Counted from the first letter of the stretch, positions 6,445 to 19,912 are shown. The stretch: 20,000 nucleotides of DNA from an uncultured virus (IMG/VR IMGVR_UViG_3300046513_000233) (IMGVR_UViG_3300046513_000233); one strand, 5' to 3'. Made by a program: numbers and translations. The notes: generated by a model from the letters alone, not told the origin.

Positions 6445-6515
6445 GACGCCACCTTATCAATTAGGAAACATGCGATTACCGCAAGGAAGAGCGACCACCC
6501 TACAATCTTGCTCAC
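6441..6515 (-). CDS. Hydrophobic microprotein (24 aa)
   Basis: MSKIVGWSLFLAVIACFLIDKVAS; GTGA overlap with the MTase stop and ATGA overlap with the next start. Confidence 0.5.
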   Translation of the reverse strand: MSKIVGWSLFLAVIACFLIDKVAS

Positions 6516-7237
6516 GCCGCCTTCGCAATCGCGTCTTCAAGGTCGATTTGCGCGTTATCGTTGGCAGGCTTCAAAGCCAGCCGCTTCTTCGCTACATTGT
6601 AGTAATCGCTATCGATCTCGATACCGACGAAGCGTCGACCGATGTTCTGGCAAGCAACGCCCGTGGTGCCGCTGCCCATGAACGGGTCAAGCACCTTCCA
6701 TCCGGGCTTCGTTGAATTGCCAACGTAGCGCTGCATCAACTCAACCGGCTTTTCAGTTGGATGCATCTTGCCGCGGGGGTTGTCGCATTCGAACGACTGC
6801 TTATCGCCGGGGTTGTTGATCGGACGCGCCGGGGGTTTGTAGAAGTACAGAACGATTTCCGTATCCTTCATGTACCAACGCGAAGGCGTGCAGTTGTTCT
6901 TGATCCACGGAAGCATGCCGTGAAATTTGAATCCGACATCCTCTGCCGCGTTCAGCATCTCGCAAAGCGTGATGTTGTTGGTCATGAAATACGCATCACG
7001 GCCCGTCCTCAGCACGCGGTAGCACTCCGCGAGGTAGTCAGCCGGCTTGATGCTGTTGTGCTTGAAAATCTTTCCGTCGTTTTTGGCGAGAATTCCGGTT
7101 GGCCTGCCGTCATCAGCGCCGATGTTCGAACCGCCAGATATCACCTTGAACGGCGGGTCTGTCAGGATCAGGTCGACGCTGGCAGCTTTCATGCTGGCCA
7201 TGGTGGCGATTGCATCGCCTAGGATAAGATCGGTCAT
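6512..7237 (-). CDS. Orphan N4/N6 DNA methyltransferase (beta class)
   Basis: Catalytic DPPF near the N-terminus, HPTEKPVELM, and SAM-binding LDPFMGSGTTG near the C-terminus. Ends KPANDNAQIDLEDAIAKAA. Confidence 0.93.
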   Translation of the reverse strand: MTDLILGDAIATMASMKAASVDLILTDPPFKVISGGSNIGADDGRPTGILAKNDGKIFKHNSIKPADYLAECYRVLRTGRDAYFMTNNITLCEMLNAAEDVGFKFHGMLPWIKNNCTPSRWYMKDTEIVLYFYKPPARPINNPGDKQSFECDNPRGKMHPTEKPVELMQRYVGNSTKPGWKVLDPFMGSGTTGVACQNIGRRFVGIEIDSDYYNVAKKRLALKPANDNAQIDLEDAIAKAA

Positions 7238-7404
7238 CGCGGAGCGACCGTGGCGTTAGGATACGGTGCATGGGGGTAGGCCGTGCCAGCCGGCACGAAA
7301 ACCATCGTCTCACGTGCGCTCGTGCTCACGAGATAGAGCCAGCCACCCGGGACGGCTAACCGCGAAGTGTGGTACGGCGTGACGTTCAATACTTCCCAAT
7401 TCAT
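7234..7404 (-). CDS. Hypothetical phage protein (56 aa)
   Basis: MNWEVLNVTPYHTSRLAVPGGWLYLVSTSARETMVFVPAG...; AAGGAG RBS; TGATG and ATGA overlaps. Confidence 0.75.
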   Translation of the reverse strand: MNWEVLNVTPYHTSRLAVPGGWLYLVSTSARETMVFVPAGTAYPHAPYPNATVAPR

Positions 7405-7565
7405 CACATCTCCTTCGTAGTTGGATGTTGCTCAATCGGCACGACGCAGAAACCGTTGTCCGATAGCTCTGCGATGAACTGATCAACATCAAATGACGGA
7501 TCACGATCACGATGAATCACTGAGCTTCGCGCTTCTGCGTTTTTGATCGCTTCTCGCATTTCCAT
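7404..7565 (-). CDS. Hypothetical protein (53 aa)
   Basis: GAGGAGG RBS 5 nt before ATG 7565; this is the C-terminal part of track ORF 7404-7841. Confidence 0.7.
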   Translation of the reverse strand: MEMREAIKNAEARSSVIHRDRDPSFDVDQFIAELSDNGFCVVPIEQHPTTKEM

Positions 7566-7579
7566 TTCCACCTCCTCTA

Positions 7580-7997
7580 AAAATCTGGCGTACAGCCCCA
7601 TCCTAAAGCGTTGCAGGCAGCACCCGAAGGTCGTACCTCGCCCCTTTGAAGAGCTTGCAACAACACGCTGCACACATTGGCCCGCAACACTAATGCGAAG
7701 CCCCCGATAGTCCGTGACGCCTAGCTTCGTCCGACCACCTGTCGCCGTCCTAGTGCTAGGATCAGGCGACCGCTTCCGTAGCCCGCTTGGGGGCAATTGA
7801 TGACTCCACTTCGCAGGACTCGCTAGCAGCCTACGAAACACCGTGTTGATTCACGCGCTGGCGTACCGATCCTGTTTCCCTTGCGGGCGATCTAGCCGCG
7901 GCCGGAGTCGACCGATTAAGACGTGCGCTACTCCGCTCTAGCTTCCGCCAGTGATATCCAGTGATGCCACACCGGCCACGGCTACTAGCGCACGTCT
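7580..7997 (-). ncRNA. Candidate large structured non-coding RNA, family not recognised
   Basis: About 420 nt without a convincing gene in an otherwise gap-free operon. Many complementary segments (12-bp 7919-7930/7986-7997; 13-bp 7893-7905/7972-7984; 8-bp 7810-7817/7830-7837; 7741-7746/7765-7770). cUUCGg and GCAA tetraloops and G-U pairs appear on the minus strand. Confidence 0.55.
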
Positions 7998-7998
7998 A

Positions 7999-8211
7999 TT
8001 AGAAATCTGAAATCACGGAGTACATCATCCCACCGAATAACATCGCCATCCCACCAAGGAATCCAATCAGGCCGATACACAAAAGCCAATCGACTGAACC
8101 CCAAGGCACGTCTACGACTGAGCCTGTGCAGATGTTGTGAATATGATTCACGCCGAAGTCGGTTGATTCTTTTAGGCACTTCGCAAGGTTGACATTCAAG
8201 TCTTCGGTCAT
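7999..8211 (-). CDS. Small membrane protein (70 aa)
   Basis: GAGGA RBS; C-terminal hydrophobic helix WLLCIGLIGFLGGMAMLFGGMMY. Confidence 0.75.
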   Translation of the reverse strand: MTEDLNVNLAKCLKESTDFGVNHIHNICTGSVVDVPWGSVDWLLCIGLIGFLGGMAMLFGGMMYSVISDF

Positions 8212-8227
8212 TTCGTTTCCTCGTCTG

Positions 8228-8301
8228 TACTTACTGAAGCCGTTTCGATCGCTGCAGCGAACCGGGCGATTACATCCCGGGCAAAACGGCTTCAGTAAGT
8301 A
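8228..8301. repeat. Perfect 18-bp inverted repeat enclosing two small hairpins (three-way junction)
   Basis: TACTTACTGAAGCCGTTT (8228-8245) / AAACGGCTTCAGTAAGTA (8284-8301); inside are TCGC-TGCA-GCGA and CCGGG-N9-CCCGG. Confidence 0.85.
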
Positions 8302-8615
8302 AAGGTGCGGTCTTTCCCGCCGTCACACATCTAGGCGCCCCGTGTTCGGGCCAGTTCTAAAAGATCAGTCTTTTTCATCTAAGCCCCGGCTTGACGGGGA
8401 CTGCATACATAAAGAGGAGTTCTGTTAGAGCTTCATGAGAGCACCTACTTTGTTGCGAGTTCTTTGGGTTTCAATCGTCAACTTCGTTTTTCAATTTACG
8501 GGTTTACAGTGTGATACCTAGAACGGGACAACCTCCTATGTTTGGCGTGTTGCTCGCGTCGGCTTCCTTAATCCACCAACCGCGAAGTTGCCTCACGCTT
8601 CGTGTACTCACGCCG

Positions 8616-8888
8616 CTACACAGCGCCGCGAATTTCGTAATGACCGGGCGCGCACTTCACCTGTGCAATGCGCCACTTGTCTGAATGATAAAGCGGATGC
8701 TCGCTCTTCCACTTCGCGACGTTTGCGATGCCGTGAATTTGGCAATCGATGAACGTCAATTCGGGTGTCAGATCGGAGTTGGTAACGATCTCCTCAACCC
8801 GCGACTCCTGCGGGGCGCAATCGCGATCGGCGGACATTGGCCCGGGGACGATCAGTTTGCACATGATGGCAACGACGGTGACGAACAT
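8616..8888 (-). CDS. Cys-containing, probably exported hypothetical protein (90 aa)
   Basis: ATG 8888 overlaps the upstream TGA; hydrophobic N-terminus MFVTVVAIMC, four Cys and a W.SEHP motif. Shorter than track ORF 8616-9131. Confidence 0.72.
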   Translation of the reverse strand: MFVTVVAIMCKLIVPGPMSADRDCAPQESRVEEIVTNSDLTPELTFIDCQIHGIANVAKWKSEHPLYHSDKWRIAQVKCAPGHYEIRGAV

Positions 8889-9073
8889 CAGAAGCCCGCC
8901 GCTGCTCGGAAGGCGTGTACGATCGTACCGAGCCAATGGCCGTAGCTCTCCGGCCAAAAGAACGCGTAGACCACGAACAGAATTCCGCCAGTAAATGGAA
9001 TCACGTTCCGCGTGTTCACGTTCGAAAGGTACTGGCCGAATGCGAACCCGGCCTTGTCTGTATTGTCTGTCAC
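8888..9073 (-). CDS. Small membrane protein (61 aa)
   Basis: GTGA/TGATG coupling; hydrophobic segment VIPFTGGILFVVYAFFW. Confidence 0.7.
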   Translation of the reverse strand: MTDNTDKAGFAFGQYLSNVNTRNVIPFTGGILFVVYAFFWPESYGHWLGTIVHAFRAAAGF

Positions 9074-9195
9074 TGCACCGTCCCCATGCGCAGAGGGTCA
9101 ACGGCGCCAACCACGATCGGCGGCCACTCAAAAGAAAACGGCACGCCCGACTTTCCGTCGTTGCGTGCCTTCTGGTTTTCTTGCCGCTTGGTCAT
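9070..9195 (-). CDS. Hypothetical protein (41 aa), probable first gene of the leftward operon
   Basis: GAGGGG RBS; MTKRQENQKARNDGKSGVPFSFEWPPIVVGAVDPLRMGTVQ; GTGA overlap downstream. Confidence 0.6.
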   Translation of the reverse strand: MTKRQENQKARNDGKSGVPFSFEWPPIVVGAVDPLRMGTVQ

Positions 9196-9223
9196 TTGTC
9201 TGTCCCCTCAATGTGGGACAAGC

Positions 9224-9263
9224 TGTAGCCCGATTAGCTACAAATTACAAGACCGTTCAAGCT
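9224..9263 (-). promoter_or_regulatory. Leftward early promoter with overlapping operator (PL/OL-like)
   Basis: Minus strand AGCTTGAAC-GGTCTTGT-AATT-TGTAGCTAATCGGGCTACA: TTGAAC -35, GCTAATC -10-like element and palindrome TGTAGC-N7-GCTACA. 31/40 identical to 10452-10491. Confidence 0.75.
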
Positions 9264-9602
9264 TTCTCCGTTGCGAACTGTTGAACGAACTGTACGAGGC
9301 GCGCGTTCAAAGGGATTGTAAACCAGTGACGCCCCGATTGGGCGCTCTTCCCATATCTGCTTGGCGAATTGCCCGCGGATGACCGCCCCCGGGTCCGTTC
9401 TCTCTGCCCACAGGTAGAGCGCGGCTAGGCGCTTCCTGTCTACGGCTCGTTGATGGTCTGGCAGCACCCTATCCGCTCTAGGGGCCTCACCCGGTGGCTG
9501 CCAGACATACCAGATAACAGCCAATTCAGAACAGGCTACAGCGAATGACTTCATGTTAAACGTAGAAAGAAGAATGCAAGTATCGACCGCGCTATGACTC
9601 AT
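9234..9602 (-). CDS. Possible accessory protein downstream of the repressor (doubtful)
   Basis: Only long ORF filling the gap between repressor and PL. No recognisable motif, and its 3' end overlaps the promoter/operator. Confidence 0.35.
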   Translation of the reverse strand: MSHSAVDTCILLSTFNMKSFAVACSELAVIWYVWQPPGEAPRADRVLPDHQRAVDRKRLAALYLWAERTDPGAVIRGQFAKQIWEERPIGASLVYNPFERAPRTVRSTVRNGESLNGLVICS

Positions 9603-9712
9603 AACCCCGCCCCGAACTTTCACTTAGGTTGCAACCTGATTGTTGCGCCACCCAGTGCGCTTGTAGCCAAAACGGCTGCGGAGCGTATCCGGTTAACTAC
9701 GGAGATTAAGAC

Positions 9713-10372
9713 TTATTTTAGAATTCTCGTCATGCGACGTATGATGGCCACAACTTTTACGGTTTCGCCCTCTTCTCTGCGCTTCTTCATGCCGGTAGTG
9801 TGGACAATAACGGGCCTATGACCATCGCAGAGGTATTCAGTCCGGTCTTTGTATATTTTCACCACTCGTGGGGATACTTCAATAAGACCGGAACGAGTCC
9901 GCTGGATTACGACTTGCTTTCCGTCAGTGATCTTTTCGACCGGCGCGATACAAATTAGCGTATCGCCATTGAGTATGCCGGACGAAATCATGCACTCGCC
10001 CTTCATCCGGAACGCGAAATGTTCCGCAGAAGGGTGCTCAAAGTCGGATGGAACAACAATCGTTTCAGCGTCATGTGAGTTCAATTCGTCTTGCTCCCGC
10101 CAAACGCCGGCAGCAATTTCCTTTTCAACTCTAAGCGTCTGTAGGTTTTCTAACGAACCCTGCACAGGCATGTTGGGTACGGGCTCTTCTATGTATGCAG
10201 CGATGGCCGCTAGTTCGTTGCTGAAAATCTTCCGAGTGCCCCAAGTCATTTTGTAAACAGTCTGACGCGTCATCCGCGTTTCCAGCTTCAGCGCCTTCGT
10301 TAGCGCCGCAGCTAGGCCAACTGCGCTCTTGCCGGGTTTCTTAAGTCCTTCCTTTAGCCACTTCTCATACAT
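9713..10372 (-). CDS. CI/LexA-like phage repressor (N-terminal HTH, C-terminal S24-like domain)
   Basis: HTH-like N-terminus (KSAVGLAAAL...RQTVYKMTWGTRKI..NELAAIAAYI), IAAG cleavage-site motif and FAFRMKGECM..GILNGD. Divergent from an HTH gene. GAGGG RBS favours ATG 10372 (10378 possible). Confidence 0.85.
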   Translation of the reverse strand: MYEKWLKEGLKKPGKSAVGLAAALTKALKLETRMTRQTVYKMTWGTRKIFSNELAAIAAYIEEPVPNMPVQGSLENLQTLRVEKEIAAGVWREQDELNSHDAETIVVPSDFEHPSAEHFAFRMKGECMISSGILNGDTLICIAPVEKITDGKQVVIQRTRSGLIEVSPRVVKIYKDRTEYLCDGHRPVIVHTTGMKKRREEGETVKVVAIIRRMTRILK

Positions 10373-10451
10373 TCCCATCACCCTCTGAAAACTCAAAACA
10401 CTACGCTAAAGTACAATCAATGTTCCCTTTCAAGCGGCGTGTCAAATTTTT

Positions 10452-10491
10452 AGCTTGAACACCCTAGCAATTTGTCGCGAATCTAGCTACA
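10452..10491 (+). promoter_or_regulatory. Rightward early promoter with overlapping operator (PR/OR-like)
   Basis: AGCTTGAAC-ACCCTAGC-AATT-TGTCGCGAATCTAGCTACA; same layout as 9224-9263; operator TGTCGC-N7-GCTACA at 10473-10491. Confidence 0.75.
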
Positions 10492-10503
10492 CACTACCCA
10501 CGA

Positions 10504-10522
10504 TGTTGCTCGATTGGCGACA
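10504..10522. promoter_or_regulatory. Second rightward operator
   Basis: TGTTGC-TCGATTG-GCGACA; fits TGTnGC-N7-GCnACA with the same central GATT as the other two copies. Confidence 0.72.
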
Positions 10523-10542
10523 CTATTTGGGGGTACTGCTAG

Positions 10543-11040
10543 ATGCAGAATGGGTTGATTGCACAAGCACTTACTAGACGTGAAGAGCGCCCGGATATTC
10601 ATAAGCCTGTCGCCAAAGTTCGAAGCGGAGAATCTTTCCGCGGCAACATAGCCGAAATGGTCCGCGACCTCAAAGAGCACGTCCCCGGCCTATCAGTTAG
10701 GCAGTTGTCCACATTGATTGGCGTCAGCGTCGGCACCGTTCATAACAACCTTCCCAAGACGACAGAGGCCAATGACCATTCGGAACATTGGACGACCGAC
10801 GACAACGAGTCGGCTTCAGCCGCTCACTTGTCAGCTTTGCGTAAGCATCATGAATGCTATCGCGATGAAGTTTCGTACATCCTTTTTGACGGCAAGACCG
10901 CCGATCGCGACGAGTGGTCGACCGTGCCTGCAGTCTACACCACCCCGGAATTTCGCGACCCTTACCGCCGTGCCGATCAGTCTCACACGATCAAGCGGCC
11001 GATTACCTTAGCTACCCGCCCGTTCAGCGTCGCGGCTTAA
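10543..11040 (+). CDS. HTH DNA-binding protein (Cro-position regulator)
   Basis: LSVRQLSTLIGVSVGTVHNNL helix-turn-helix; first gene after PR; ends RPFSVAA. Confidence 0.75.
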   Translation: MQNGLIAQALTRREERPDIHKPVAKVRSGESFRGNIAEMVRDLKEHVPGLSVRQLSTLIGVSVGTVHNNLPKTTEANDHSEHWTTDDNESASAAHLSALRKHHECYRDEVSYILFDGKTADRDEWSTVPAVYTTPEFRDPYRRADQSHTIKRPITLATRPFSVAA

Positions 11041-11087
11041 ACCAAACCCCAACACACCCAAACCGAAACAACATCTGAGGAGATGTG

Positions 11088-11273
11088 ATGCAGGATTTTG
11101 CTTATTCGCTGGATGACGAAGTCATGGTTGGCAACGTCAAAGCAAGCGTCGTTGGTGCCGCAGCATTCTCGCACAAGAGCGACGAATATCTGTTGCGGCT
11201 GATCGATGACGAAGGACTCCCGTCCGAACGTTGGTTCACTGAAAGCGCAATCAGAAAGGCGAGGACTCATTAA
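11088..11273 (+). CDS. Hypothetical phage protein (61 aa)
   Basis: GAGGAG RBS; YLLRLIDDEG...ERWFTESAI; TAATG coupling. Confidence 0.78.
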   Translation: MQDFAYSLDDEVMVGNVKASVVGAAAFSHKSDEYLLRLIDDEGLPSERWFTESAIRKARTH

Positions 11274-12175
11274 TGAATACGTTCAAGAAGGGTGACGTTG
11301 TCAGCGTGTATGGCAAGGGCCGGCATATCGTGGATTACATCGATGGTCCGTACGTCTATCACGACAAGGGCGGGTGCTCCTATCACGGTGACTGCAAGCT
11401 CGTGCCACAGCCGAAGTTTGGGCCGGGGGATGTTGTCAGTAACGGCAGCAGTAGCGGCGAATTCACTATCAAGTGCGTGAAGACGAGCTTCCAAGACGGA
11501 ACACCGTACAACGGCGAGGCTGCTTACGATTACGCGGACTCGTACAAGGGCGCTTGGGATTACGAGCGCCATCTGACTCTCGTCCGTCGCGCCAACCCCG
11601 CACCGACGCTTGGCGACATCGTTAGTGATGCGTTGAAGAGCCGGAGCGGTATCAAGGTTGGCGATCGCGTTCGATTGGACTCGCCCGAATATGACGACAT
11701 CCCGGGCACGGTTACGTCGATTGAGTGGCCGCACTTCAAGGCTCGTTGGGACGGCGGGGGAGGCGATTCCGTTCCATTCCCGATCAAGTACGCCGTCGTT
11801 ATTTCGTCAGCGCCCGGCCTCGAAACTGTTTTTTCGGAGATCAGGGCCGGTCGCGTCATTAACGCGATCAAGGAGTATCGCGCGGTATACGGCGTCGGCC
11901 TGAAGGAAGCCAAGGACTCCGTTGAAGCGATCCGAGAGGCAATGAATTTGGCGGCCCCGGCCCCCGTATCCGCCCCACGCGACTCGATCGTGGTTCGGTT
12001 CGAGAACGGCAAGTACGAACCGAACTCGCCGCCGAAGGTGCACCCGTCGCTTGCGGAAGCCACGGCGGAAGCCGAACGGCTCGCGAAGAAAGAGCCCGGC
12101 ATCGCGTTCGCAACGTTCTCGCTGATGTCGCACAGCACCGCGACGAAGCCGACTGTTTCGACGGTGGCGAAATGA
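11273..12175 (+). CDS. Multidomain protein: three SH3/KOW-like repeats, ribosomal protein bL12 C-terminal-like motif, C-terminal phage domain
   Basis: FKKGDVV, KFGPGDVV and IKVGDRVR repeat starts; INAIKEYRAVYGVGLKEAKDSVE; PKVHPSLAEATAEAERLAKKEPG. Confidence 0.78.
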   Translation: MNTFKKGDVVSVYGKGRHIVDYIDGPYVYHDKGGCSYHGDCKLVPQPKFGPGDVVSNGSSSGEFTIKCVKTSFQDGTPYNGEAAYDYADSYKGAWDYERHLTLVRRANPAPTLGDIVSDALKSRSGIKVGDRVRLDSPEYDDIPGTVTSIEWPHFKARWDGGGGDSVPFPIKYAVVISSAPGLETVFSEIRAGRVINAIKEYRAVYGVGLKEAKDSVEAIREAMNLAAPAPVSAPRDSIVVRFENGKYEPNSPPKVHPSLAEATAEAERLAKKEPGIAFATFSLMSHSTATKPTVSTVAK

Positions 12176-12306
12176 CCACAGACAAGCCGCAACAGCTTCC
12201 GCGGCGTCCACCTCCGGGCGCTGCATACACAACATGGGTTGCCGATGCCAAAGGCGCCCTCACCGAGCAGCCGGCGTACGTCGCGCCAGAGAGTGACGCA
12301 GCATGA
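12172..12306 (+). CDS. Hypothetical protein (44 aa)
   Basis: MTTDKPQQLPRRPPPGAAYTTWVADAKGALTEQPAYVAPESDAA; ATGA overlaps at both ends. Confidence 0.7.
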   Translation: MTTDKPQQLPRRPPPGAAYTTWVADAKGALTEQPAYVAPESDAA

Positions 12307-12884
12307 CGGAATTTGAACCGTTTCCGAAGATCGGCCGGCTTCGCCGCGACTGCGTCGTTACGGAGAAGATTGACGGCACGAATGCACAGGTTTGCATTGT
12401 TGCAGACGGTGAACTTGACGGCGCCGTTGCCTACGTCGGCGGGTACTCGATTTATGCCGGCTCGCGTAGCCGGTGGCTGCAGCCCGGTAAAGGCAATGAC
12501 AACTTTGGCTTTGCCGGCTGGGTTGTCGACAACGCCGCGGAATTGGTCAAGCTTGGCGAGGGAAGGCACTACGGCGAGTGGTGGGGCGTTGGAATCCAAC
12601 GCGGCTACGATCTGACGGAGCGCCGCTTTTCCCTCTTCAACGCCTACCGCTGGCGCGAGGAACGGCCTTCGTGCTGCGGCGTGGTGCCGATCTTGTATGC
12701 CGGGCCGTTCAACACAACCGCAGTCGATGCTGTTGTTTGGGAGTTGGAGCGAACCGGCTCCGTTGCCAAGCCTGATTTCATGAAGCCAGAGGGAATCATC
12801 GTCTATCACGCGGCGACGAAGACGTACTTCAAGCGGCTCTTGGAGAACGACGAGATTTCCAAGGGCGAGGCGCTAGCCGCCTAG
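12303..12884 (+). CDS. RNA ligase family nucleotidyltransferase
   Basis: Motif I TEKIDGTN, AGSRSR, YGEWWG, FSLFN, VVPILYAG and PEGIIVY. Confidence 0.85.
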   Translation: MTEFEPFPKIGRLRRDCVVTEKIDGTNAQVCIVADGELDGAVAYVGGYSIYAGSRSRWLQPGKGNDNFGFAGWVVDNAAELVKLGEGRHYGEWWGVGIQRGYDLTERRFSLFNAYRWREERPSCCGVVPILYAGPFNTTAVDAVVWELERTGSVAKPDFMKPEGIIVYHAATKTYFKRLLENDEISKGEALAA

Positions 12885-13062
12885 CTCCCCAGACGGCACC
12901 ACTACCAATTGTAGCCGGCGCCGCCAAAACACCAGCCCGTTGGGCAAGTTCTGAATTTTCGAACCCGCTGTTGACCACAGTTCGGGAAACCCATATTTCT
13001 GCCAATCAGAAAGGTACGTATCAATGAACTGCGGCATCGGCATTTGGTTCGGCGTGTTCTGA

Positions 13063-13233
13063 GTGCTCGACATCATCCACGGCACCCTAGCATCTTTGGA
13101 TGCTAGCTACTTCGTCGCTTGGATATTTGGACTCATGCTCGCGGTAGTCGTCGCCTGCATTATCGGTCACTTTATCCTGAAACTTATTGACCACTGGAGA
13201 TTTCAGATTTGGCTAAATCAATTGCATCGTTAG
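13063..13233 (+). CDS. Small membrane protein (56 aa), in frame with an upstream 12-codon ORF at 13024-13062
   Basis: GTG...YFVAWIFGLMLAVVVACIIGHFILKLID...; overlaps the ATPase start by 25 nt. Confidence 0.45.
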   Translation: MLDIIHGTLASLDASYFVAWIFGLMLAVVVACIIGHFILKLIDHWRFQIWLNQLHR

Positions 13234-14021
13234 TTTCGACCAAGTCCGACAGGCCGCCGATTTTGTTGCTCTACGGTGTCGGCGGCGTCGGAAAGACCTC
13301 GCTTGCCGCGGAATTTCCCGACCCTGTCTATCTGCATACGCAGGGCGAAGAGCCGCCAAGCAACGTTGAGCTTGCGACCCCCGGTGTCGTCGAGTCCTAC
13401 GACGAAATGATTGAACTGATGACAGAGCTTGTCGTTGGCGATCACGACCGGAAGACTGTCATTATCGATAGCCTTGACGGCTTCGAGTCGTTGGTTTGGG
13501 CGAAGACATGCGGTCGACTCGGCGTCAACTCGATTGAAGACCCCGGCTACGGCAAGGGCTACATCGAAACCGATCAGGAATGGCAGTATTTCATTGACGG
13601 TGCCTTGGCCCTGAAGCAGCGCGGAATTTGCGTTGTGATCTTGGCTCACCCTGAAATCGTTCGTTTCGACTCGCCTATCACGGACCCGTACAGCCGATAC
13701 ACCGTGAAGCTTCACAAGCGAGCCAACGCGATTATCCGTGAGAAATCCGACATCGTCGGATTCATGAACTACCGCACCACCATCAAAGAGAAGGAAGTTG
13801 CCCGGCAGAAGACAGTTGCTCACGGCGAAGGCGGCGGAGATCGGCAGATTCATCTTGAGGAACGGCCGGGCTTCCTAGCCAAGAACCGATACCAAATGCC
13901 GACAGTGATTCAATACAAGATCGGCAAGGGTTACGAAGAACTTTCGAAGCACTTCCCGGCGCCATACGGCGCTGTGGTGGCGAACGACAACACCAAGACG
14001 ACCAAGAAGAAAGCAGCGTGA
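13209..14021 (+). CDS. AAA_24 / Sak4-like phage ATPase (single-strand annealing recombinase family)
   Basis: LLYGVGGVGKTS Walker A, TVIIDSLD Walker B, GYGKGY, ILAH and AKNRY. GGAG RBS before TTG. Ends VANDNTKTTKKKAA. Confidence 0.88.
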   Translation: MAKSIASLVSTKSDRPPILLLYGVGGVGKTSLAAEFPDPVYLHTQGEEPPSNVELATPGVVESYDEMIELMTELVVGDHDRKTVIIDSLDGFESLVWAKTCGRLGVNSIEDPGYGKGYIETDQEWQYFIDGALALKQRGICVVILAHPEIVRFDSPITDPYSRYTVKLHKRANAIIREKSDIVGFMNYRTTIKEKEVARQKTVAHGEGGGDRQIHLEERPGFLAKNRYQMPTVIQYKIGKGYEELSKHFPAPYGAVVANDNTKTTKKKAA

Positions 14022-14674
14022 TGGGACAGTTTAAGATTGGGGACAAGGTCACTAATAGCGGCGTTGTCGCGACGGTGATTGGAGTTGAGCAACTGCTACG
14101 CGTCGATTGGGGTAACGGCATCTTTGGTTTCTGGCCGGCTTCTTCTTTTACGCTCGTGCAGCGCAAGTTCAAGGAAGGCGATTTCGTCCGCAGTATCGCT
14201 GACGACGAAACCAATGGCACCGTTGGAGTCGTCTTCGAAGACGACGGCAGCGAGGAAGATAGCGACCCGTATTGGGTTGGTTTGTTCGATGCTGACTGCA
14301 GCGAATTTCCGTTCTCTGCACACGAGCTAATTCCTTGGGTGCCGATTGTTGGTGAACGCGTCATCGAGGCAGACGCGGACGATGACGAAGAAGGCACGAT
14401 CGTTTCGGTTGCCGATGGTCGCGCGGTTGTTCTCTGGGACTCGTTCCCTCTCGCTCAAGACTGGCCATTGTCTGATCTTGAGCCGGCCGAAGAGTTCGAA
14501 GAAGACGATTTCGAAGTTGGGGACGAAGTCGTTTATTCGAATCCGCTCTTTACCAACACCTACAGCGCTCGTGTGATGGACGTTCAAGAAAACGTCGTCT
14601 TCGTCAACTTCGAGTCTGAAGCTCCGTTGGTCGACGCATATTACCCCAAAGATTTTTTCAGCAAGGCAGCATAG
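14021..14674 (+). CDS. Acidic protein with four SH3/KOW-like repeats
   Basis: FKIGDKV, FKEGDFV, IVGERV and FEVGDEV repeat starts; about 47 D/E versus about 12 K/R by hand count. Confidence 0.75.
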   Translation: MGQFKIGDKVTNSGVVATVIGVEQLLRVDWGNGIFGFWPASSFTLVQRKFKEGDFVRSIADDETNGTVGVVFEDDGSEEDSDPYWVGLFDADCSEFPFSAHELIPWVPIVGERVIEADADDDEEGTIVSVADGRAVVLWDSFPLAQDWPLSDLEPAEEFEEDDFEVGDEVVYSNPLFTNTYSARVMDVQENVVFVNFESEAPLVDAYYPKDFFSKAA

Positions 14675-14688
14675 GAGTTACGAACTAG

Positions 14689-15228
14689 ATGGCAAGTCTT
14701 AACGGTCAATATGATCCGGAAGCAGGCGTACCCGGCGTATACGAAGTCTTCGAAGCCGGCCCCAACCCGATGGAAGTTGTTGAGTCCGACATCGTCGCGA
14801 CGAAGGCCGGCACTGGCAAGCTTCTGAAGTACAAGGTTCGTATTACGGAAGGCGACAACGAAGACCGTTTGGTTTTCGGGCAGTTCAACTTGCAGAACCC
14901 GAATCCCGTCGCAACGAAGATCGGGCAGGAAGAGTTCCGTGCGCTCCGCGAAGTCGTCGGTGTCCTTGAACCGGAAGATACCCAAGACCTGCATTTCAAG
15001 CAGTTCATTGGCTACGTGAAGATTACGCCGGCCAAAGGCGAGTACGCGGCCAAGAACGAAATCGATTGGGGCAAGACCTACAAAATCTTCACCGATGGTG
15101 TCGACGCTGTAGCGCCGCCAGCCAACGACAATGAGAAGCCCGCACCGGCCAAGGCTGCACCGGTCAAGGCCGCTGCGAAGCCCGCTGCAGGCGCTGCCAA
15201 GGCTCCGTGGCCTAGGAAGGCTGCGTAA
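14689..15228 (+). CDS. DUF669-like single-stranded DNA-binding protein
   Basis: SDIVATKAGTGKLLK...ITEG..EDRLVFGQFNLQNPNPVATKIGQ...YAAKNEI; lies between the Sak4-like ATPase and the exonuclease; AGGAG RBS. Confidence 0.82.
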   Translation: MASLNGQYDPEAGVPGVYEVFEAGPNPMEVVESDIVATKAGTGKLLKYKVRITEGDNEDRLVFGQFNLQNPNPVATKIGQEEFRALREVVGVLEPEDTQDLHFKQFIGYVKITPAKGEYAAKNEIDWGKTYKIFTDGVDAVAPPANDNEKPAPAKAAPVKAAAKPAAGAAKAPWPRKAA

Positions 15229-15248
15229 CTAGTCGCCGTAAGACGTTT

Positions 15249-15281
15249 GGGGGTGGAGACGACAAACCCCCGCTTATTTTT
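15249..15281 (+). terminator. Possible weak intrinsic terminator/attenuator
   Basis: GGGGGT (15249-15254) / ACCCCC (15266-15271) followed by GCTTATTTTT. Confidence 0.35.
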
Positions 15282-15292
15282 AGGAAACCATT

Positions 15293-16234
15293 TTGGCAAA
15301 GCTTACCGAAGACCTAGTTATGCCGCCGCAATTGACTGTGGCCGCGATCTACGCCGCGTATGAAGCTGCGAAAGAAGAATGGGACTCGCTTGGCATCTCT
15401 GTTGGCGAGCTTGGCGAAGAGTGTCAGAGGAAATTGTACTATGCACTTCATTGGGTGACGCATCCGGAGAAAGTGCCGGGGCGCAATCTTCGCCTGTTTG
15501 ATACAGGCAATATCGAAGAAGACCGGATGGTGGCGGACCTGCAGCGGGCCGGTATCGAGGTTTTCGGGCAGCAAGATAAAATTCGCTTGGTGTCTGGCCA
15601 CGTGCGCGGAAAGATCGATGGCCGATGCCTTGGCCTGCCGGAAGCTGCGAAGACTGAGCATCTTGTCGAATTCAAATCGAGTAACGACAAGAATTTCAAG
15701 CTGCTTCTAAAGAAGGGATGCAAGGAAGCGAAACCGCTGCACTATTGCCAAGTGCAGATGGGCTGCCACGCGTTTGGCTTGACTCGCGGTCTCTATCTTG
15801 TCGTGAACAAAAACGATGACACCTTGTATCAAGAGCGCATTGAGTACGATGTAGAGTATTGCCTAAAGATGCTTGCGAAGGCTGAACGCATCATTCGCGC
15901 TACATCGCCTCCGCCTCGCATCTCAGAAGACCCCGAGTTTTTCGGCTGCCGGTTCTGCAACAAAAAAGATATTTGCCACCATGACGCTTTGCCGCGCGTG
16001 AGTTGTCGCACGTGCCTATTCGTTACGCCGCAGATGGGTGGTGATGCAGCATGGGAGTGCGGAAAGTACAATAAGCCCCTGTCGTTCGATGAACAGAAGC
16101 TGGGTTGCCCTTCCCACCTATTCGATCCCGATCTGATTTCAGCGGAACAGATCGATTCTGATGAAGTGAACGAGACGGTTACGTACCGCCTTCGTGATGG
16201 CACCATATGGGTTGATGGGCAGGTTGCGGCGTGA
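15293..16234 (+). CDS. Cas4-like PD-(D/E)XK exonuclease with Cys cluster
   Basis: ECQRKLYY, GKIDG, VEFKS, HYCQVQ, CRFCNKKDIC and CRTC; typical partner of Sak4/DUF669. Confidence 0.85.
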   Translation: MAKLTEDLVMPPQLTVAAIYAAYEAAKEEWDSLGISVGELGEECQRKLYYALHWVTHPEKVPGRNLRLFDTGNIEEDRMVADLQRAGIEVFGQQDKIRLVSGHVRGKIDGRCLGLPEAAKTEHLVEFKSSNDKNFKLLLKKGCKEAKPLHYCQVQMGCHAFGLTRGLYLVVNKNDDTLYQERIEYDVEYCLKMLAKAERIIRATSPPPRISEDPEFFGCRFCNKKDICHHDALPRVSCRTCLFVTPQMGGDAAWECGKYNKPLSFDEQKLGCPSHLFDPDLISAEQIDSDEVNETVTYRLRDGTIWVDGQVAA

Positions 16235-16956
16235 GTCTACCTAAGACTTGGAAGAGGGCCATTGAGCTTGGCCGAAAGCACTACAATACCAAGCTCAAGT
16301 GCAGCAAAGGACATTTAAGCAAGAGATTCACTGCGAATAGACAATGCGTAGAATGCTGTCTGGCACGGCAACGTGATGCGTACTGGAAAGACCCCGACTC
16401 GGAAAGAGCCCGTTTGAGAATTCGCCGCCTAGCTGATCCGCAAAAAAGTAAAGACGCTTGGGCTCGCTATTCGAAATTGAACCGCAGGATTCTAAATACC
16501 AAAAGCCGAGATCACTACGCAGCCAACATAGACGCAAAACGAGAACGCGCCCGACGCGACCACGCAAATAATAGAGAAGTCAATAACGCCAGATCGCGCC
16601 GTTACTACCAAGAGAACAAACAAAAGGTTCTTGTACAAAAAACGAATTGGCTTGCGAAACATCCGGGATACGCAGCGAGCGTAGTTCGCAATAGACGCGC
16701 ATTGAAAAAGGGAAATGGCGGCACTCATACAGTCGCGGAAGTTATTGCGATTCTTAAAAAGCAAAACTACCGATGCGTCTACTGCAATATTTCAATTCGT
16801 CACAAGCGGCACATGGATCATATCAAACCATTGTCGCGCGGCGGTTCTAACAACGCAAAGAATTTGCAGGGTCTTTGCCCTAGTTGCAATTCCAGCAAGA
16901 ATGACAAGACCCACGCTGAATATGTCAAATTTCTTAAACTGAGGAATGCAGCATGA
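16231..16956 (+). CDS. HNH endonuclease (probable free-standing homing endonuclease)
   Basis: CSKGH...CVEC N-terminus, basic helical linker, CVYC...HMDHIKPLSRGGSNNAKNLQGLCPSCNSSK; visibly more A-rich than neighbours. Confidence 0.9.
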   Translation: MSLPKTWKRAIELGRKHYNTKLKCSKGHLSKRFTANRQCVECCLARQRDAYWKDPDSERARLRIRRLADPQKSKDAWARYSKLNRRILNTKSRDHYAANIDAKRERARRDHANNREVNNARSRRYYQENKQKVLVQKTNWLAKHPGYAASVVRNRRALKKGNGGTHTVAEVIAILKKQNYRCVYCNISIRHKRHMDHIKPLSRGGSNNAKNLQGLCPSCNSSKNDKTHAEYVKFLKLRNAA

Positions 16957-17075
16957 CCAAACTTCACAAGCAAGTCACCAAAGCTCTTCGTAAAACCGAC
17001 AACGCGGAAGAAATCCCCGACTACGAAGAGTTGGCGCGTGTCGCAATCAAGGCGGTTCGCAGGGCGCTGAAGTGA
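16953..17075 (+). CDS. Hypothetical protein (40 aa)
   Basis: MTKLHKQVTKALRKTDNAEEIPDYEELARVAIKAVRRALK; GAGGA RBS; ATGA and TGATG overlaps. Confidence 0.65.
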   Translation: MTKLHKQVTKALRKTDNAEEIPDYEELARVAIKAVRRALK

Positions 17076-17242
17076 TGACCCTGCAGGTAGGCGACACCGT
17101 CGATAGTATCGAGGTTGGTACGAAGGAAGCATTTACCGGCACCATCGTTAAGGTGTTGCCGTTCGCCTACCACGTCCGCGACGCCTTCAACAAGCGCTGG
17201 CATCGCAGTGAAGACGAACTAACCCTAGTGAGGAAAGCATGA
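17075..17242 (+). CDS. Single SH3/KOW-like domain protein (55 aa)
   Basis: MTLQVGDTVDSIEVGTKEAFTGTIVKVLPFAYHVRDAFNKRWHRSEDELTLVRKA; coupled at both ends. Confidence 0.7.
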   Translation: MTLQVGDTVDSIEVGTKEAFTGTIVKVLPFAYHVRDAFNKRWHRSEDELTLVRKA

Positions 17243-17394
17243 ACACGCTTACAGGCCGCAGGCAGTACAAGTCGACCGTGCACGGACTCATTCTGCAAGT
17301 TGAGTTTTGTTTCTGGGATGTAACACGTTGGCGCTGTGCGTGGCGCGATGCCGACGTTTACGACGTGTGTAGCTTTGAGATGGCGGCTTTGTGA
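17239..17394 (+). CDS. Hypothetical phage protein (51 aa)
   Basis: MNTLTGRRQYKSTVHGLILQVEF...AWRDADVYD...; GAGGA RBS; coupled at both ends. Confidence 0.7.
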   Translation: MNTLTGRRQYKSTVHGLILQVEFCFWDVTRWRCAWRDADVYDVCSFEMAAL

Positions 17395-18179
17395 TGTTTG
17401 ACCCCACGCTAATTCACGGCGATTGCTTGGAAGTTATGGCCGACGCTCCGGACGCGAGCGTTGACATGATCTTGTGCGACTTGCCGTACGGGACGACGGC
17501 TTGCGCTTGGGACGCCGTGATTCCATTCGATCGGCTTTGGGCCGAGTATAGGCGGATATCAAGGCCGAACGCGGCCATAGTGCTAACAGCGAGTCAGCCG
17601 TTTACTTCCGCGCTAATCATGAGCGCAATCGATTTGTTCAAGTACGAATGGATTTGGGAAAAGAGCAGAGCGACGGGGCACGTTCACGCCAAGAATAAGC
17701 CGATGAAGAAGCACGAGAACGTCTTGGTTTTTTCCAAAGGGGTTACAGCCCACGCCCATTTGTCCGATCGAAGGATGAACTACTTTCCTCAAGGACTCGT
17801 GCGGAAGGTCGTTCCAACAATTCGAAAAAAAGGCGGCGAGTCGGACGCGGTTATGGGTGCCAGACCTTCAAACCGCGACACCTTACAAGAGTTCGAAGGT
17901 TACCCGCATTCTATGCTGCAGGTCGCATCAGAAGGCAAGACCGTCCACCCCACTCAAAAGCCCGTTGCGCTGATGGAATACATGATCCGCACCTATACGA
18001 ACCCGGGCGATGTCGTACTTGATAATTGCATGGGCAGCGGGACAACCGGCGTCGCGTGTAAGAATACCGGCCGGGAGTTCATTGGAATCGAAATGGACAA
18101 AACCTATTTCGACATCGCTACGGCTCGCATCTGTGCGGCCAATGATAACACGCCAGCCGTTGAAGCGGTGGCTGCATAA
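17394..18179 (+). CDS. Orphan N4/N6 DNA methyltransferase (beta class)
   Basis: ILCDLPYG, HENVLVF, HPTQKPVALMEY and LDNCMGSGTTG. Ends CAANDNTPAVEAVAA. Confidence 0.93.
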   Translation: MFDPTLIHGDCLEVMADAPDASVDMILCDLPYGTTACAWDAVIPFDRLWAEYRRISRPNAAIVLTASQPFTSALIMSAIDLFKYEWIWEKSRATGHVHAKNKPMKKHENVLVFSKGVTAHAHLSDRRMNYFPQGLVRKVVPTIRKKGGESDAVMGARPSNRDTLQEFEGYPHSMLQVASEGKTVHPTQKPVALMEYMIRTYTNPGDVVLDNCMGSGTTGVACKNTGREFIGIEMDKTYFDIATARICAANDNTPAVEAVAA

Positions 18180-19912
18180 TGCTTGAACTCCGCCCGTACC
18201 AGCATGACGCGCTAGCTGCGCTGAAAGATTATTGGCAGGCGGGTGGTGAACACCCGCTTGTGGTGCTGGCCACTGGCACCGGTAAGAGCCTTGTACAAGC
18301 GAGGCTCTGCAAGGATTTCATTGAAGAGTTCTCCGGCTTGCGCATCATATCCGTTACGCACGTCAAAGAACTGATTGAACAGAACTATCTTGAGATATTG
18401 GGCGAATGGCCGTTCGCTCCAGCCGGTATCTATTCGGCCGGTTTGGGACGCCGCGATTCTCAATCTCAAATTCTGTTTGCTGGTATCCAATCAGTTCACA
18501 ACAAAGCAAAGAAGATCGGCCACGTTGACTTGCTGATGGTCGACGAAGCCCATTTGATCCCGAAGACTGCCGACACAATGTACGGCCGGTTCATTCAAGA
18601 CTTGCTTGCGATCAATCCGGATATGCGGATTGTCGGGTTCACCGCTACGCCATACCGCACTGACAGCGGCCGGCTTGACGAAGGCGATGAGCGATTATTC
18701 ACGGAGGTTGTTTACGACTATGGAATCGCTAACGGAATACGAGACGGTTATCTTTCTCCGTTGGTGTCGAAGGCTACAGACACTGGATTTGATATGTCTG
18801 GCGTTGCTAGGCGAGGTGGGGATTATGTACCCGGTGCGCTCAACGCGGCCGTAGACAAGACAGCCACTACGCAAGCCGCCGTTCGCGAAATTGTAACTGC
18901 CGGGGCTAGCCGCAACGCTTGGCTCGTGTTCTGTGCCGGCGTACAGCATGCGGAGCACGTGAGAGACGAGTTTCGGGCTTGCGGCATTACTTGCGAGATG
19001 GTGACGGGCGATACTCCGTCGAACGAGCGCGCACGCATCCTGCGGGACTTCAAGTCGGGCAAGATTAAGTGCGTTACCAACAACAGCGTGTTGACCACGG
19101 GATTTAACCACCCGGGCATTGATCTAATCGCGGACCTTCGTCCTACCCTGTCGTGTGTGCTGTACGTCCAAATTGCGGGCCGTGGTACGCGCCCGCTCTA
19201 CGCCAAGGGGTTTGACCTGTCCACGGTCGAAGGCCGTTTGGCGGCCATCGCTGCCGGTCCTAAGCCTAACTGCCTGTACATGGACTTCAGCGGCAACGTG
19301 AGTAAGCGCCACGGGCCGGTAGACACTGCGCAGCCGCGGAAGCCGGGTGAAGGTGACGGCGAAGCGCCGTGTAAGGAATGCCCCCAGTGCCGATCGCACG
19401 TACATATCAGCGCGAAGGTTTGTCCGGATTGCGAATACAAATTTCCGGAGAATGAGAAGCCAAAGCACGCCGCGACATCTGCAGCCGCGCCGATCTTGTC
19501 AACGGAGGCCCCTAAATGGCTCAACGTGCAGACTCGAAAGTTCTACTATCACGAGAACGCCGAAGGCTCTGAATCGGTTCGCGTCGAATTCCTAGCAAAC
19601 TTCGTCAACTACAAGCTTTGGCTTTCGGTGCGCAAGGCAAGGGGCCGCTGCGATAAGTTCTGGCGCGATCACGGAGGCCGCGAGCCCTACCCGACCGACG
19701 TTGAAGACTGGCTTGACCGTATCGGAGAACTGAAAGAGACGGCGCAGATTCAGGTTCGGCCGAAAGGCAAATTCTTTGAAATCGTCGGAATGAAGCCGGC
19801 AGAGCAGCACGCCCCACCGCCTAGTGCGGTGGCGATACAGAGCAAGAGGTTTGGTATGGCACCGATCCGACCTGTTACGCATAGAGATTTAGACGACGAT
19901 ATTCCATTTTAA
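18179..19912 (+). CDS. SF2 DEAH-box helicase (RadD/YejH-like) with Zn finger
   Basis: LRPYQ, ATGTGKS, VDEAH, TATPYR, LTTGFNHP, QIAGRGTR and CKECPQC...CPDC. Ends DLDDDIPF. Confidence 0.93.
   Translation: MLELRPYQHDALAALKDYWQAGGEHPLVVLATGTGKSLVQARLCKDFIEEFSGLRIISVTHVKELIEQNYLEILGEWPFAPAGIYSAGLGRRDSQSQILFAGIQSVHNKAKKIGHVDLLMVDEAHLIPKTADTMYGRFIQDLLAINPDMRIVGFTATPYRTDSGRLDEGDERLFTEVVYDYGIANGIRDGYLSPLVSKATDTGFDMSGVARRGGDYVPGALNAAVDKTATTQAAVREIVTAGASRNAWLVFCAGVQHAEHVRDEFRACGITCEMVTGDTPSNERARILRDFKSGKIKCVTNNSVLTTGFNHPGIDLIADLRPTLSCVLYVQIAGRGTRPLYAKGFDLSTVEGRLAAIAAGPKPNCLYMDFSGNVSKRHGPVDTAQPRKPGEGDGEAPCKECPQCRSHVHISAKVCPDCEYKFPENEKPKHAATSAAAPILSTEAPKWLNVQTRKFYYHENAEGSESVRVEFLANFVNYKLWLSVRKARGRCDKFWRDHGGREPYPTDVEDWLDRIGELKETAQIQVRPKGKFFEIVGMKPAEQHAPPPSAVAIQSKRFGMAPIRPVTHRDLDDDIPF

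Follow-up and report, generated by a model that had tools for sequence, protein, structure and literature searches.

The adaptor SspB binds the head of the peptide tag specified by transfer-messenger RNA (tmRNA, ssrA) and tethers it to the N-domain of ClpX; the Ala-Ala end of the tag is then taken by ClpX and the protein is degraded by ClpP (described in the portions of PMC9382460 and PMC5422525 cited here). In Caulobacter, a protein fused to the ssrA tag undergoes very rapid proteolysis, which becomes slower upon deletion of sspB (cited portion of PMC9393093). Phage genes can carry related ends themselves, as in mycobacteriophages with integration-dependent immunity, whose integrase and repressor bear C-terminal ssrA-like tags (Broussard et al. 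2013, as cited in PMC9635641). Here we analysed a stretch of 20,000 nucleotides, hereafter the window, from the uncultured virus IMGVR_UViG_3300046513_000233 (IMG/VR), in which ten proteins end in Ala-Ala and four of these also carry a tail headed by Ala-Asn-Asp-Asn (ANDN). Judged by their likeness to the tag, the tails are well supported as genome-encoded mimics of the host tmRNA tag, and they may make early phage enzymes short-lived through SspB and ClpXP.

C-terminal degrons whose end is read directly by ClpX include that of CtrA in Caulobacter, with its Ala-Ala, and that of MuA. They share with the phage tails an end in Ala-Ala or a similar sequence; however, CtrA and MuA are without a tmRNA-tag head, whereas the phage head recurs in 33 protein families. 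With the mycobacteriophages, so far as the secondary account goes, the tails share hard-coded C-terminal ssrA-like tags in phage genes and would share protein levels set by host ClpXP-type proteolysis. The two systems differ in that two regulators are tagged there, the repressor losing its tag on integration, while at least ten early enzymes and a putative adaptor-binding head are involved here. In addition, the S24 repressor of the window (9713-10396) ends in ..RILK and has neither Ala-Ala nor ANDN, unlike the tagged repressor of integration-dependent immunity. In engineered DAS+4 tags, a head bound by SspB is joined through a spacer to an end with weakened ClpX recognition, which makes degradation tunable and dependent on the adaptor (cited portion of PMC9382460), and the Val-Ala and Ala-Val ends of some phage tails resemble natural counterparts of these; the phage tails are, however, natural and diverse, and their action as degrons is putative.

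A full-text literature search, with subscription journals mostly outside its reach and supplements excluded, returned no published account of the phenomenon, and the mycobacteriophage integrase and repressor tags were the sole related phage case that it found. In a paper naming both SspB and phage 16-3, SSPB proved to be an unrelated abbreviation. Whereas ssrA-like ends were known before on two regulators of some mycobacteriophages, a whole early proteome appears here to be wired to the degradation route of ribosome rescue, in a lineage that includes the classic Rhizobium phage 16-3.

Tag-like tails in the window

The window covers 20 kb of a virus contig of 24,395 bases. Genes were called with a codon-usage gene caller of our own, in which start codons are uncertain and C-termini are independent of them. 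The original prediction had listed ten proteins with Ala-Ala ends, five of them encoded consecutively within 13209-16956, and four copies of ANDN. All ten open reading frames (ORFs) were recovered at their coordinates, the five consecutive genes all have the Ala-Ala end, and the four ANDN copies (6554-6565 on the minus strand, 13980, 15121 and 18138) agree exactly in position and codons. The tails and ends are as follows.

6515..6565, minus strand: ANDNAQIDLEDAIAKAA, the 17-residue tail of methylase 1 (gene 6512-7237)
11032..11037, plus strand: terminal Ala-Ala of the first protein of the rightward operon (gene 10543-11040)
12298..12303, plus strand: terminal Ala-Ala of a 44-aa ORF (gene 12172-12306)
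12876..12881, plus strand: terminal ALAA of the RNA ligase (gene 12303-12884; RNA_ligase by Pfam)
13980..14018, plus strand: ANDNTKTTKKKAA, the last 13 residues of the Sak4-like AAA_24 ATPase, a complete look-alike of the tag (gene 13209-14021)
14666..14671, plus strand: terminal Ala-Ala of the acidic protein (gene 14018-14674)
15121..15225, plus strand: ANDN head, Ala/Pro/Lys-rich linker and Ala-Ala, 35 residues in all, in the DUF669/SSB-like protein (gene 14689-15228)
16226..16231, plus strand: terminal Ala-Ala of the Cas4-domain exonuclease (gene 15293-16234; PHROGs)
16948..16953, plus strand: terminal Ala-Ala of the HNH endonuclease (gene 16231-16956; Pfam)
18135..18176, plus strand: AANDNTPAVEAVAA, an Ala followed by a 13-residue ANDN...AA, at the C-terminus of methylase 2 (gene 17391-18179)

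The coding pattern for ANDN, GCNAAYGAYAAY, has exactly four matches in the window, against an expectation of 0.12, and none of 200 shuffles reached four. All four are in frame and, as had been proposed, lie in tails past the folded domain, beyond the Pfam domain ends at residue 218 of 241 in methylase 1, 228 of 270 in the Sak4-like ATPase, 116 of 179 in the DUF669 protein and 244 of 262 in methylase 2; all four tails also end in Ala-Ala. An AlphaFold2 model of the Sak4-like ATPase had a mean predicted local distance difference test (pLDDT) score of 88.7, falling below 50 at residues 259-270, and the 13-residue tail (residues 258-270) was therefore taken as disordered. For the other three tails, the unstructured position is predicted from the Pfam domain ends. 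Two looser resemblances did not hold up: the ANDH inside the supposed helix-turn-helix (HTH) protein, the first of the rightward operon, has no counterpart, with ANDN in the tails of none of its six relatives, and in place of the ENDE of the ligase its sole relative has GDE.

As a background for these ends, we used 691 host genes, called in the same way in two genomes with related prophages (2 x 400 kb). Ala-Ala ends were found there in 16/326 and 20/365 genes (36/691, 5.2%), compared with 10/44 genes of the contig (Fisher p = 1.7e-4) and 9/18 in the operon at 10543-20421 (p = 2.4e-7). ANDN within the last 40 residues was present in four of the 44 contig genes and in none of the 691 host genes (Fisher p = 1.1e-5); anywhere in the host proteins, it occurred in four copies per 228,000 residues. 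Both features thus exceed the host background, a count that the original prediction had proposed as a check. In the same host stretches (L112-L151, from G001 and G005), 118/691 proteins (17%) end in Ala, and Ala makes up 11-12.5% of residues, a composition that alone would predict about 1.5% Ala-Ala endings.

The host side was examined in five genomes holding related prophages. Each gave one match to the Rfam family alpha_tmRNA, and ARAGORN read tag peptides in all five: ANDNKAQGYALAA (twice), ANDNNAKEYALAA, ANDNYAPVAQAA and ANDNYAEARLAA. Every one of these tags has the form ANDN...AA and is 12-13 residues long. SspB (PF04386) scored above the cut-off in all five genomes, and in each of them sspB follows the tmRNA gene on its strand, 0.1-2.4 kb downstream (L153 = G001:C16:872168-873181, L154, L155, L152/L107 and L156/L110). 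The claim that the phage hard-codes copies of the alphaproteobacterial tmRNA tag is strongly supported.

The ANDN head in the window is identical to the start of the tags of all five hosts. In the Sak4-like ANDNTKTTKKKAA and the methylase 2 (A)ANDNTPAVEAVAA, 13 residues run from ANDN to the Ala-Ala end, as in native tags, and the Sak4-like tail equals the host tags ANDNKAQGYALAA and ANDNNAKEYALAA in length; the span is 17 residues in methylase 1 and 35 in the DUF669 protein. The Ala ahead of the native head is supplied by tmRNA itself. In the phage tails, the residue preceding ANDN is Ala in 41%, Pro in 30% and Val in 12% of cases when weighted by family. Taken together, phage tails and native tags share the (A)ANDN head, the Ala-Ala end, the length of 12-13 residues (two tails) and a C-terminal position that is disordered. 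The differences are that the phage tails are encoded within ORFs up to ordinary stop codons and do not arise by trans-translation, that their middle residues are x-Pro rather than [Y/N/K]-Ala, and that head and Ala-Ala often stand apart or alone, the head even being N-terminal in relatives (53/436 copies).

Selection and distribution in related phages

Through relatives of the Sak4-like gene, 106 related loci were collected, 80 from IMG/VR (kept from 93 confirmed) and 26 from genomes; the source genomes are mostly Rhizobiales (Agrobacterium, Rhizobium, Brucella/Ochrobactrum, Shinella, Devosia and Consotaella), with a few unclassified metagenome-assembled genomes. Together with the contig, these gave 2924 called proteins and 2309 distinct tails. 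ANDN was present in 347 copies within the last 40 residues of these unique tails, across 33 protein families, with 53 further copies within the first 40 residues and 36 at internal positions, while ten anagrams of the motif occurred 0-5 times each (an eleventh, NDNA, occurred 29 times, overlapping ANDNA). The coding pattern was found 441 times in frame, 11 times in other frames, 9 times antisense and 53 times outside called genes, and ANDN was spelled by 31 of the 32 synonymous forms, near general codon usage except for an excess of GAC.

Ala-Ala ends were likewise frequent, in 527/2309 tails (23%), and were associated with the head, being found in 143/318 tails with ANDN versus 384/1991 without it (p = 2e-21, a value that overstates independence since the rows are related sequences, so that the family counts are safer). 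In tails ending in Ala-Ala, the last ANDN most often lies 10-14 residues from the end, with a mode of 13, which is the native tag length, and a second group at 17-19. Other ANDN tails end in Val-Ala (19) or Ala-Val (7). The feature is kept in relatives down to about 30% identity. The original prediction had argued for selection on the protein from the different codons used in the window, and the frame bias, synonymous spelling, anagram control and native spacing bear this out: judged from these loci, protein-level selection acts on both the head [A/P/V]-A-N-D-N and the Ala-Ala end in the flexible tails of many unrelated early proteins.

The same counts bear on the possibility that the tails are without function, arising by chance, from low-complexity composition, as a DNA-level site, or as a by-product of gene overlaps and ribosome-binding sites. 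Four of the ten Ala-Ala endings do lie in ATGA or GTGA stop-start overlaps, with a further overlap of 1 nt at methylase 2, about 5% of host proteins end in this way, and the tails are Ala-rich. However, all that an overlap constrains in the last codon is its third base, and the Ala codons are not uniform; the endings are therefore not explained by overlaps, and stop-start overlaps or Shine-Dalgarno sequences, which the original prediction had named as a possible full explanation, were rejected as their cause. Low-complexity composition was rejected on the anagram control (0-5 versus 347), and a DNA-level site on the frame and strand bias (441 in frame versus 20 off-frame or antisense) and the 31 spellings. 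Given also that no shuffle produced four matches, that the feature is retained by distant relatives, and that early and late genes differ in it (see below), an absence of function is very improbable.

The difference between early and late genes, a comparison likewise proposed beforehand, was assessed in three related prophages and their surroundings, with the borders of the early, late and host classes set by eye from gene content. Both features are concentrated in the early genes.

Early genes: Ala-Ala end in 34/125, ANDN in 16/125
Virion and lysis genes: Ala-Ala end in 4/80, ANDN in 1/80
Flanking host genes: Ala-Ala end in 6/129, ANDN in 0/129

Beside the prophage lies another, distinct phage-like element that likewise encodes ANDN..[AV]A tails and several Ala-Ala ends (G005:C2 at about 685-698 kb, L161; G004:C1 at about 720-731 kb, L168).

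The families that bear ANDN include the helicase, the Cas4 exonuclease, the SSB-like protein, Sak4, three kinds of DNA methylase, Gp157, a sigma-70-like protein and small proteins without a family. In two of these the motif was observed within the first 40 residues rather than in the tail, namely in 17/25 unique members of the sigma-70-like family and 15/32 of the Gp157 family (e.g., L016:13646-14179 and L058:12486-13016).

For the Sak4-like ATPase, 90 of the best 120 clusters of relatives in a large protein collection end in Ala-Ala and 32 have ANDN, and in the related loci the Ala-Ala end is found in 54/67 tails. Among 150 representatives of 50%-identity clusters of distant Sak4 proteins (P0122-P0271; 32-58% identity), 31 end in Ala-Ala and one has ANDN, while the head variants ANDE and ANDD were not found in this set; the terminal Ala-Ala of this recombinase thus appears to be older or wider in distribution than the ANDN head. 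Methylase 2 relatives have the Ala-Ala end in 13/17 unique tails and ANDN in 13/17. The methylase 1 family keeps QIDLE[ED]AI between the ANDN head and Ala-Ala, with tails in relatives such as ANDN..QIDLEEAIANAA.

The proteins with Ala-Ala alone are more uneven. The end is present in 4/6 unique tails of relatives of the first operon protein, in 2/2 RNA ligase tails and in 4/5 unique tails of the acidic-protein family; in the exonuclease family, 23 of 74 unique tails end in Ala-Ala and 12 have ANDN, e.g., DGANDNKPNNKQVA. Just 2/10 unique tails of HNH relatives have it, and the end of the HNH endonuclease may therefore be incidental. Besides an identical copy (L001), the sole relative of the 44-aa ORF ends in Gly-Ala, and the standing of this ORF as a real gene is uncertain (coding score 5.9).

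Beyond the related loci, Rhizobium phage 16-3 gave 18 pattern matches (reversed-pattern control 0), with 14 of its 86 proteins ending in Ala-Ala and 12 having ANDN. Four other phages gave the following counts.

Brucella phage Tb: 1 pattern match, Ala-Ala end in 1/50
Roseobacter phage CRP-901: 0 pattern matches, Ala-Ala end in 3/76
Sphingomonas phage Eidolon: 1 pattern match, Ala-Ala end in 0/56
Klebsiella phage VLCpiS13c: 0-1 pattern matches, Ala-Ala end in 2/75

The Sak4 homologues of all four terminate directly past the conserved domain. The expectation that homologues elsewhere would be without tails therefore held for these phages but failed as a rule of host class, since three of the four infect alphaproteobacteria. 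A trait of all alphaproteobacterial phages was rejected on the 0-1 matches in Tb, CRP-901 and Eidolon compared with 18 in 16-3. As the three tail-less phages share the host class, the tails are best regarded as add-ons typical of the 16-3-like temperate lineage.

Proposed degron function and competing readings

We propose, with a probability of roughly 0.55, that the tails make early enzymes short-lived through SspB-ClpXP, with a strength set by the parts present, as the original prediction had suggested. The host adaptor SspB (alpha type) would take up the ANDN head in its substrate groove and dock on ClpX by its own tail; the Ala-Ala carboxyl end would then enter the ClpX pore, and ClpXP would unfold and degrade the protein. 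Degradation would be fastest, and assisted by the adaptor, for proteins that have both parts at native spacing (the Sak4-like ATPase and methylase 2). A distant head (methylase 1 and the DUF669 protein) would make an intermediate substrate, and Ala-Ala alone (ligase, acidic protein, exonuclease and first operon protein) a weaker one independent of the adaptor. For a temperate phage, the likely benefit would be that nucleases, methylases and recombination proteins made when early transcription is leaky or transient are cleared fast, and with such quick removal the levels of early enzymes would closely track transcription.

Docking was examined with an in-silico complex of host SspB residues 1-125 and the 40-residue Sak4 tail of the prophage in the same genome. 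The complex scored 0.45, the best of three controls 0.00, and the runs shared at least 52% of contacts with a partner pLDDT of at least 45. The mark applied was reached by 51/78 solved complexes and 2/108 mismatched pairs; passes at a score of 0.60 or lower comprised 5/78 solved complexes and all four of the mismatches that passed (of 180). Structures of SspB-alpha are already in the PDB (2QAS, 2QAZ and 2NYS), and the pass may therefore reflect memory of a like complex, one of these structures presumably holding a tag peptide.

Several observations weigh against a degron function mediated by SspB and ClpXP. The docking support for SspB binding is weak, and the residues after ANDN favour x-Pro in the phage tails (15.5/41, family-weighted), whereas native tags have [Y/N/K]-Ala. 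Among Sak4 relatives 75-90% identical, ANDN is gained or lost while ..KKAA is kept. Relatives of the helicase have ANDN in 60/76 tails and the Ala-Ala end in one, with one or two ANDN copies followed by a ..DDD[IV]PF end; similarly, in 72 unique DUF669 tails ANDN is present in 67 (often twice), yet seven end in Ala-Ala and most end in RPWG(KK). With the head so often unaccompanied by the terminal Ala-Ala in relatives, it probably has a use besides that of a ClpX degron. Conversely, since about 5% of host proteins (36/691) end in Ala-Ala, this end alone cannot mean rapid turnover. Three other alphaproteobacterial phages have no such tails, and the host of the contig, to which no host genome is joined, is a Rhizobium-type bacterium that we infer from relatives.

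The frequency of heads without Ala-Ala bears directly on another use of the same machinery, offered as an alternative in the original prediction, in which the tails would mainly occupy SspB, ClpXP or both. Abundant early proteins headed by ANDN, whether or not they end in Ala-Ala, would titrate the scarce adaptor and crowd the protease, and so stabilise other substrates of phage or host, or alternatively would block the clearance of tmRNA-tagged products and cell-cycle substrates. The many ANDN copies of relatives without Ala-Ala, some of them in tandem (helicase and DUF669), fit adaptor binders that need not undergo degradation, and the motif is spread across 33 families. An exponential E. 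coli cell has only about 176-356 SspB dimers, proteolytic queueing has been described (cited portion of PMC9382460), and ClpXP is essential in Caulobacter (cited portion of PMC5422525). However, Ala-Ala, which a pure SspB decoy would not need, is enriched together with ANDN at native spacing, is enriched in proteins without ANDN as well, and ends all four ANDN tails of the window; saturation as the main role is thus rather improbable.

A doubtful, broader version joins degradation with saturation: the tags might form a shared proteolytic queue that serves as a threshold device between lysis and lysogeny, with dozens of early proteins competing for scarce adaptor and protease. Leaky prophage expression would be erased by competition for SspB-ClpXP, while full induction would saturate the system and stabilise all tagged phage proteins together, also blocking host tmRNA-tag clearance and ClpXP-dependent cell-cycle proteolysis. 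Proteins with ANDN only, such as the helicase and the SSB-like protein of relatives, would act as dedicated adaptor sinks.

A further explanation is that ANDN is a short linear motif for a different hub, of the phage or among host replication or repair proteins, its likeness to the tag head being convergent or irrelevant and the Ala-Ala endings a separate feature. Most carriers act in replication, recombination or methylation, the x-Pro preference is foreign to native tags, and the support from SspB docking is weak. The same tails also bear other host-like short motifs: the ..DLDDDIPF end of the helicase is similar to host SSB tails, and in methylase relatives Ala-Ala is preceded by Q[AP]DLFG. 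Host-like tail motifs are thus clearly in use in this lineage, presumably for recruitment, which lends the explanation some weight. On the other hand, ANDN heads all five host tags without variation, Ala is favoured just before it, and it is coupled to Ala-Ala at native spacing; moreover, non-exhaustive Pfam scans that covered 20 proteins of the window and 20 representatives drawn from 25 families revealed no SspB-like protein or obvious candidate hub. We therefore consider a different partner unlikely and retain the degron reading.

The helicase tail itself appears to mimic the tail by which SSB recruits its partners. The helicase gene (18179-19912) ends, at window positions 19892-19909, in ..HRDLDDDIPF, close to the host SSB tips ..SRDLDDEIPF (G005) and ..MNDDIPF (G001). 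Among relatives, a ..PF end is found on 58 unique tails with ANDN, and one DUF669 protein (L070) ends in DDDIPF. The methylase tails of relatives (L084:15274-16092, L052:18424-19239, L030:18341-19630 and others) read ANDN..Q[AP]DLFG[VDE]AA, in which we take QxDLF to resemble the beta-clamp-binding motif.

If degradation through SspB and ClpXP is the function, these tails would exemplify a general means by which phages control protein lifetimes or jam a host protease, and would provide natural, graded, adaptor-dependent degrons for alphaproteobacteria such as rhizobia, Agrobacterium and Caulobacter. It would also account for the enrichment of Ala-Ala ends in these prophages.

Gene layout and neighbouring genes

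The closest named phage by protein is Rhizobium phage 16-3, whose p077 is 65% identical to the Sak4-like ATPase; no near-identical DNA was matched in the phage collection. By its proteins and gene content, the virus is a temperate phage of the 16-3-like Rhizobiales lineage. ORF calls together with Pfam and PHROGs gave a lambdoid layout in the window, with the repressor at the head of the leftward arm.

9713-10396, minus strand: S24/LexA-type repressor (Pfam)

The leftward arm continues with a DNA methylase, an HD-domain protein and a primase-polymerase. The rightward early operon starts at 10543 and extends past 20000, with genes for the RNA ligase, the Sak4-like AAA_24 ATPase, the acidic protein, the DUF669/SSB-like protein, the Cas4-domain exonuclease, the HNH endonuclease, methylase 2 and the helicase. 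Neither a tRNA or tmRNA gene nor an integrase was found in the window.

Most of the family names given in the original prediction stood: Pfam confirmed N6_N4_Mtase (twice), RNA_ligase, AAA_24 and HNH, with DUF669 below threshold, and PHROGs placed a Cas4-domain exonuclease and an SSB-like protein among the window genes. The exception was the HTH label of the first operon protein, for which, as for the acidic protein, the Pfam and PHROGs searches matched no family.

Next to the tagged genes, positions 11273-12175 encode a protein of 300 aa with a sub-threshold match to the C-terminal domain of ribosomal protein L7/L12 (24.1 bits, cut-off 25.9), for which a relative scores 28.5 bits. Ala-Ala ends are present in 21/25 unique tails of this family, and the copy in the window ends in ..TVAK.

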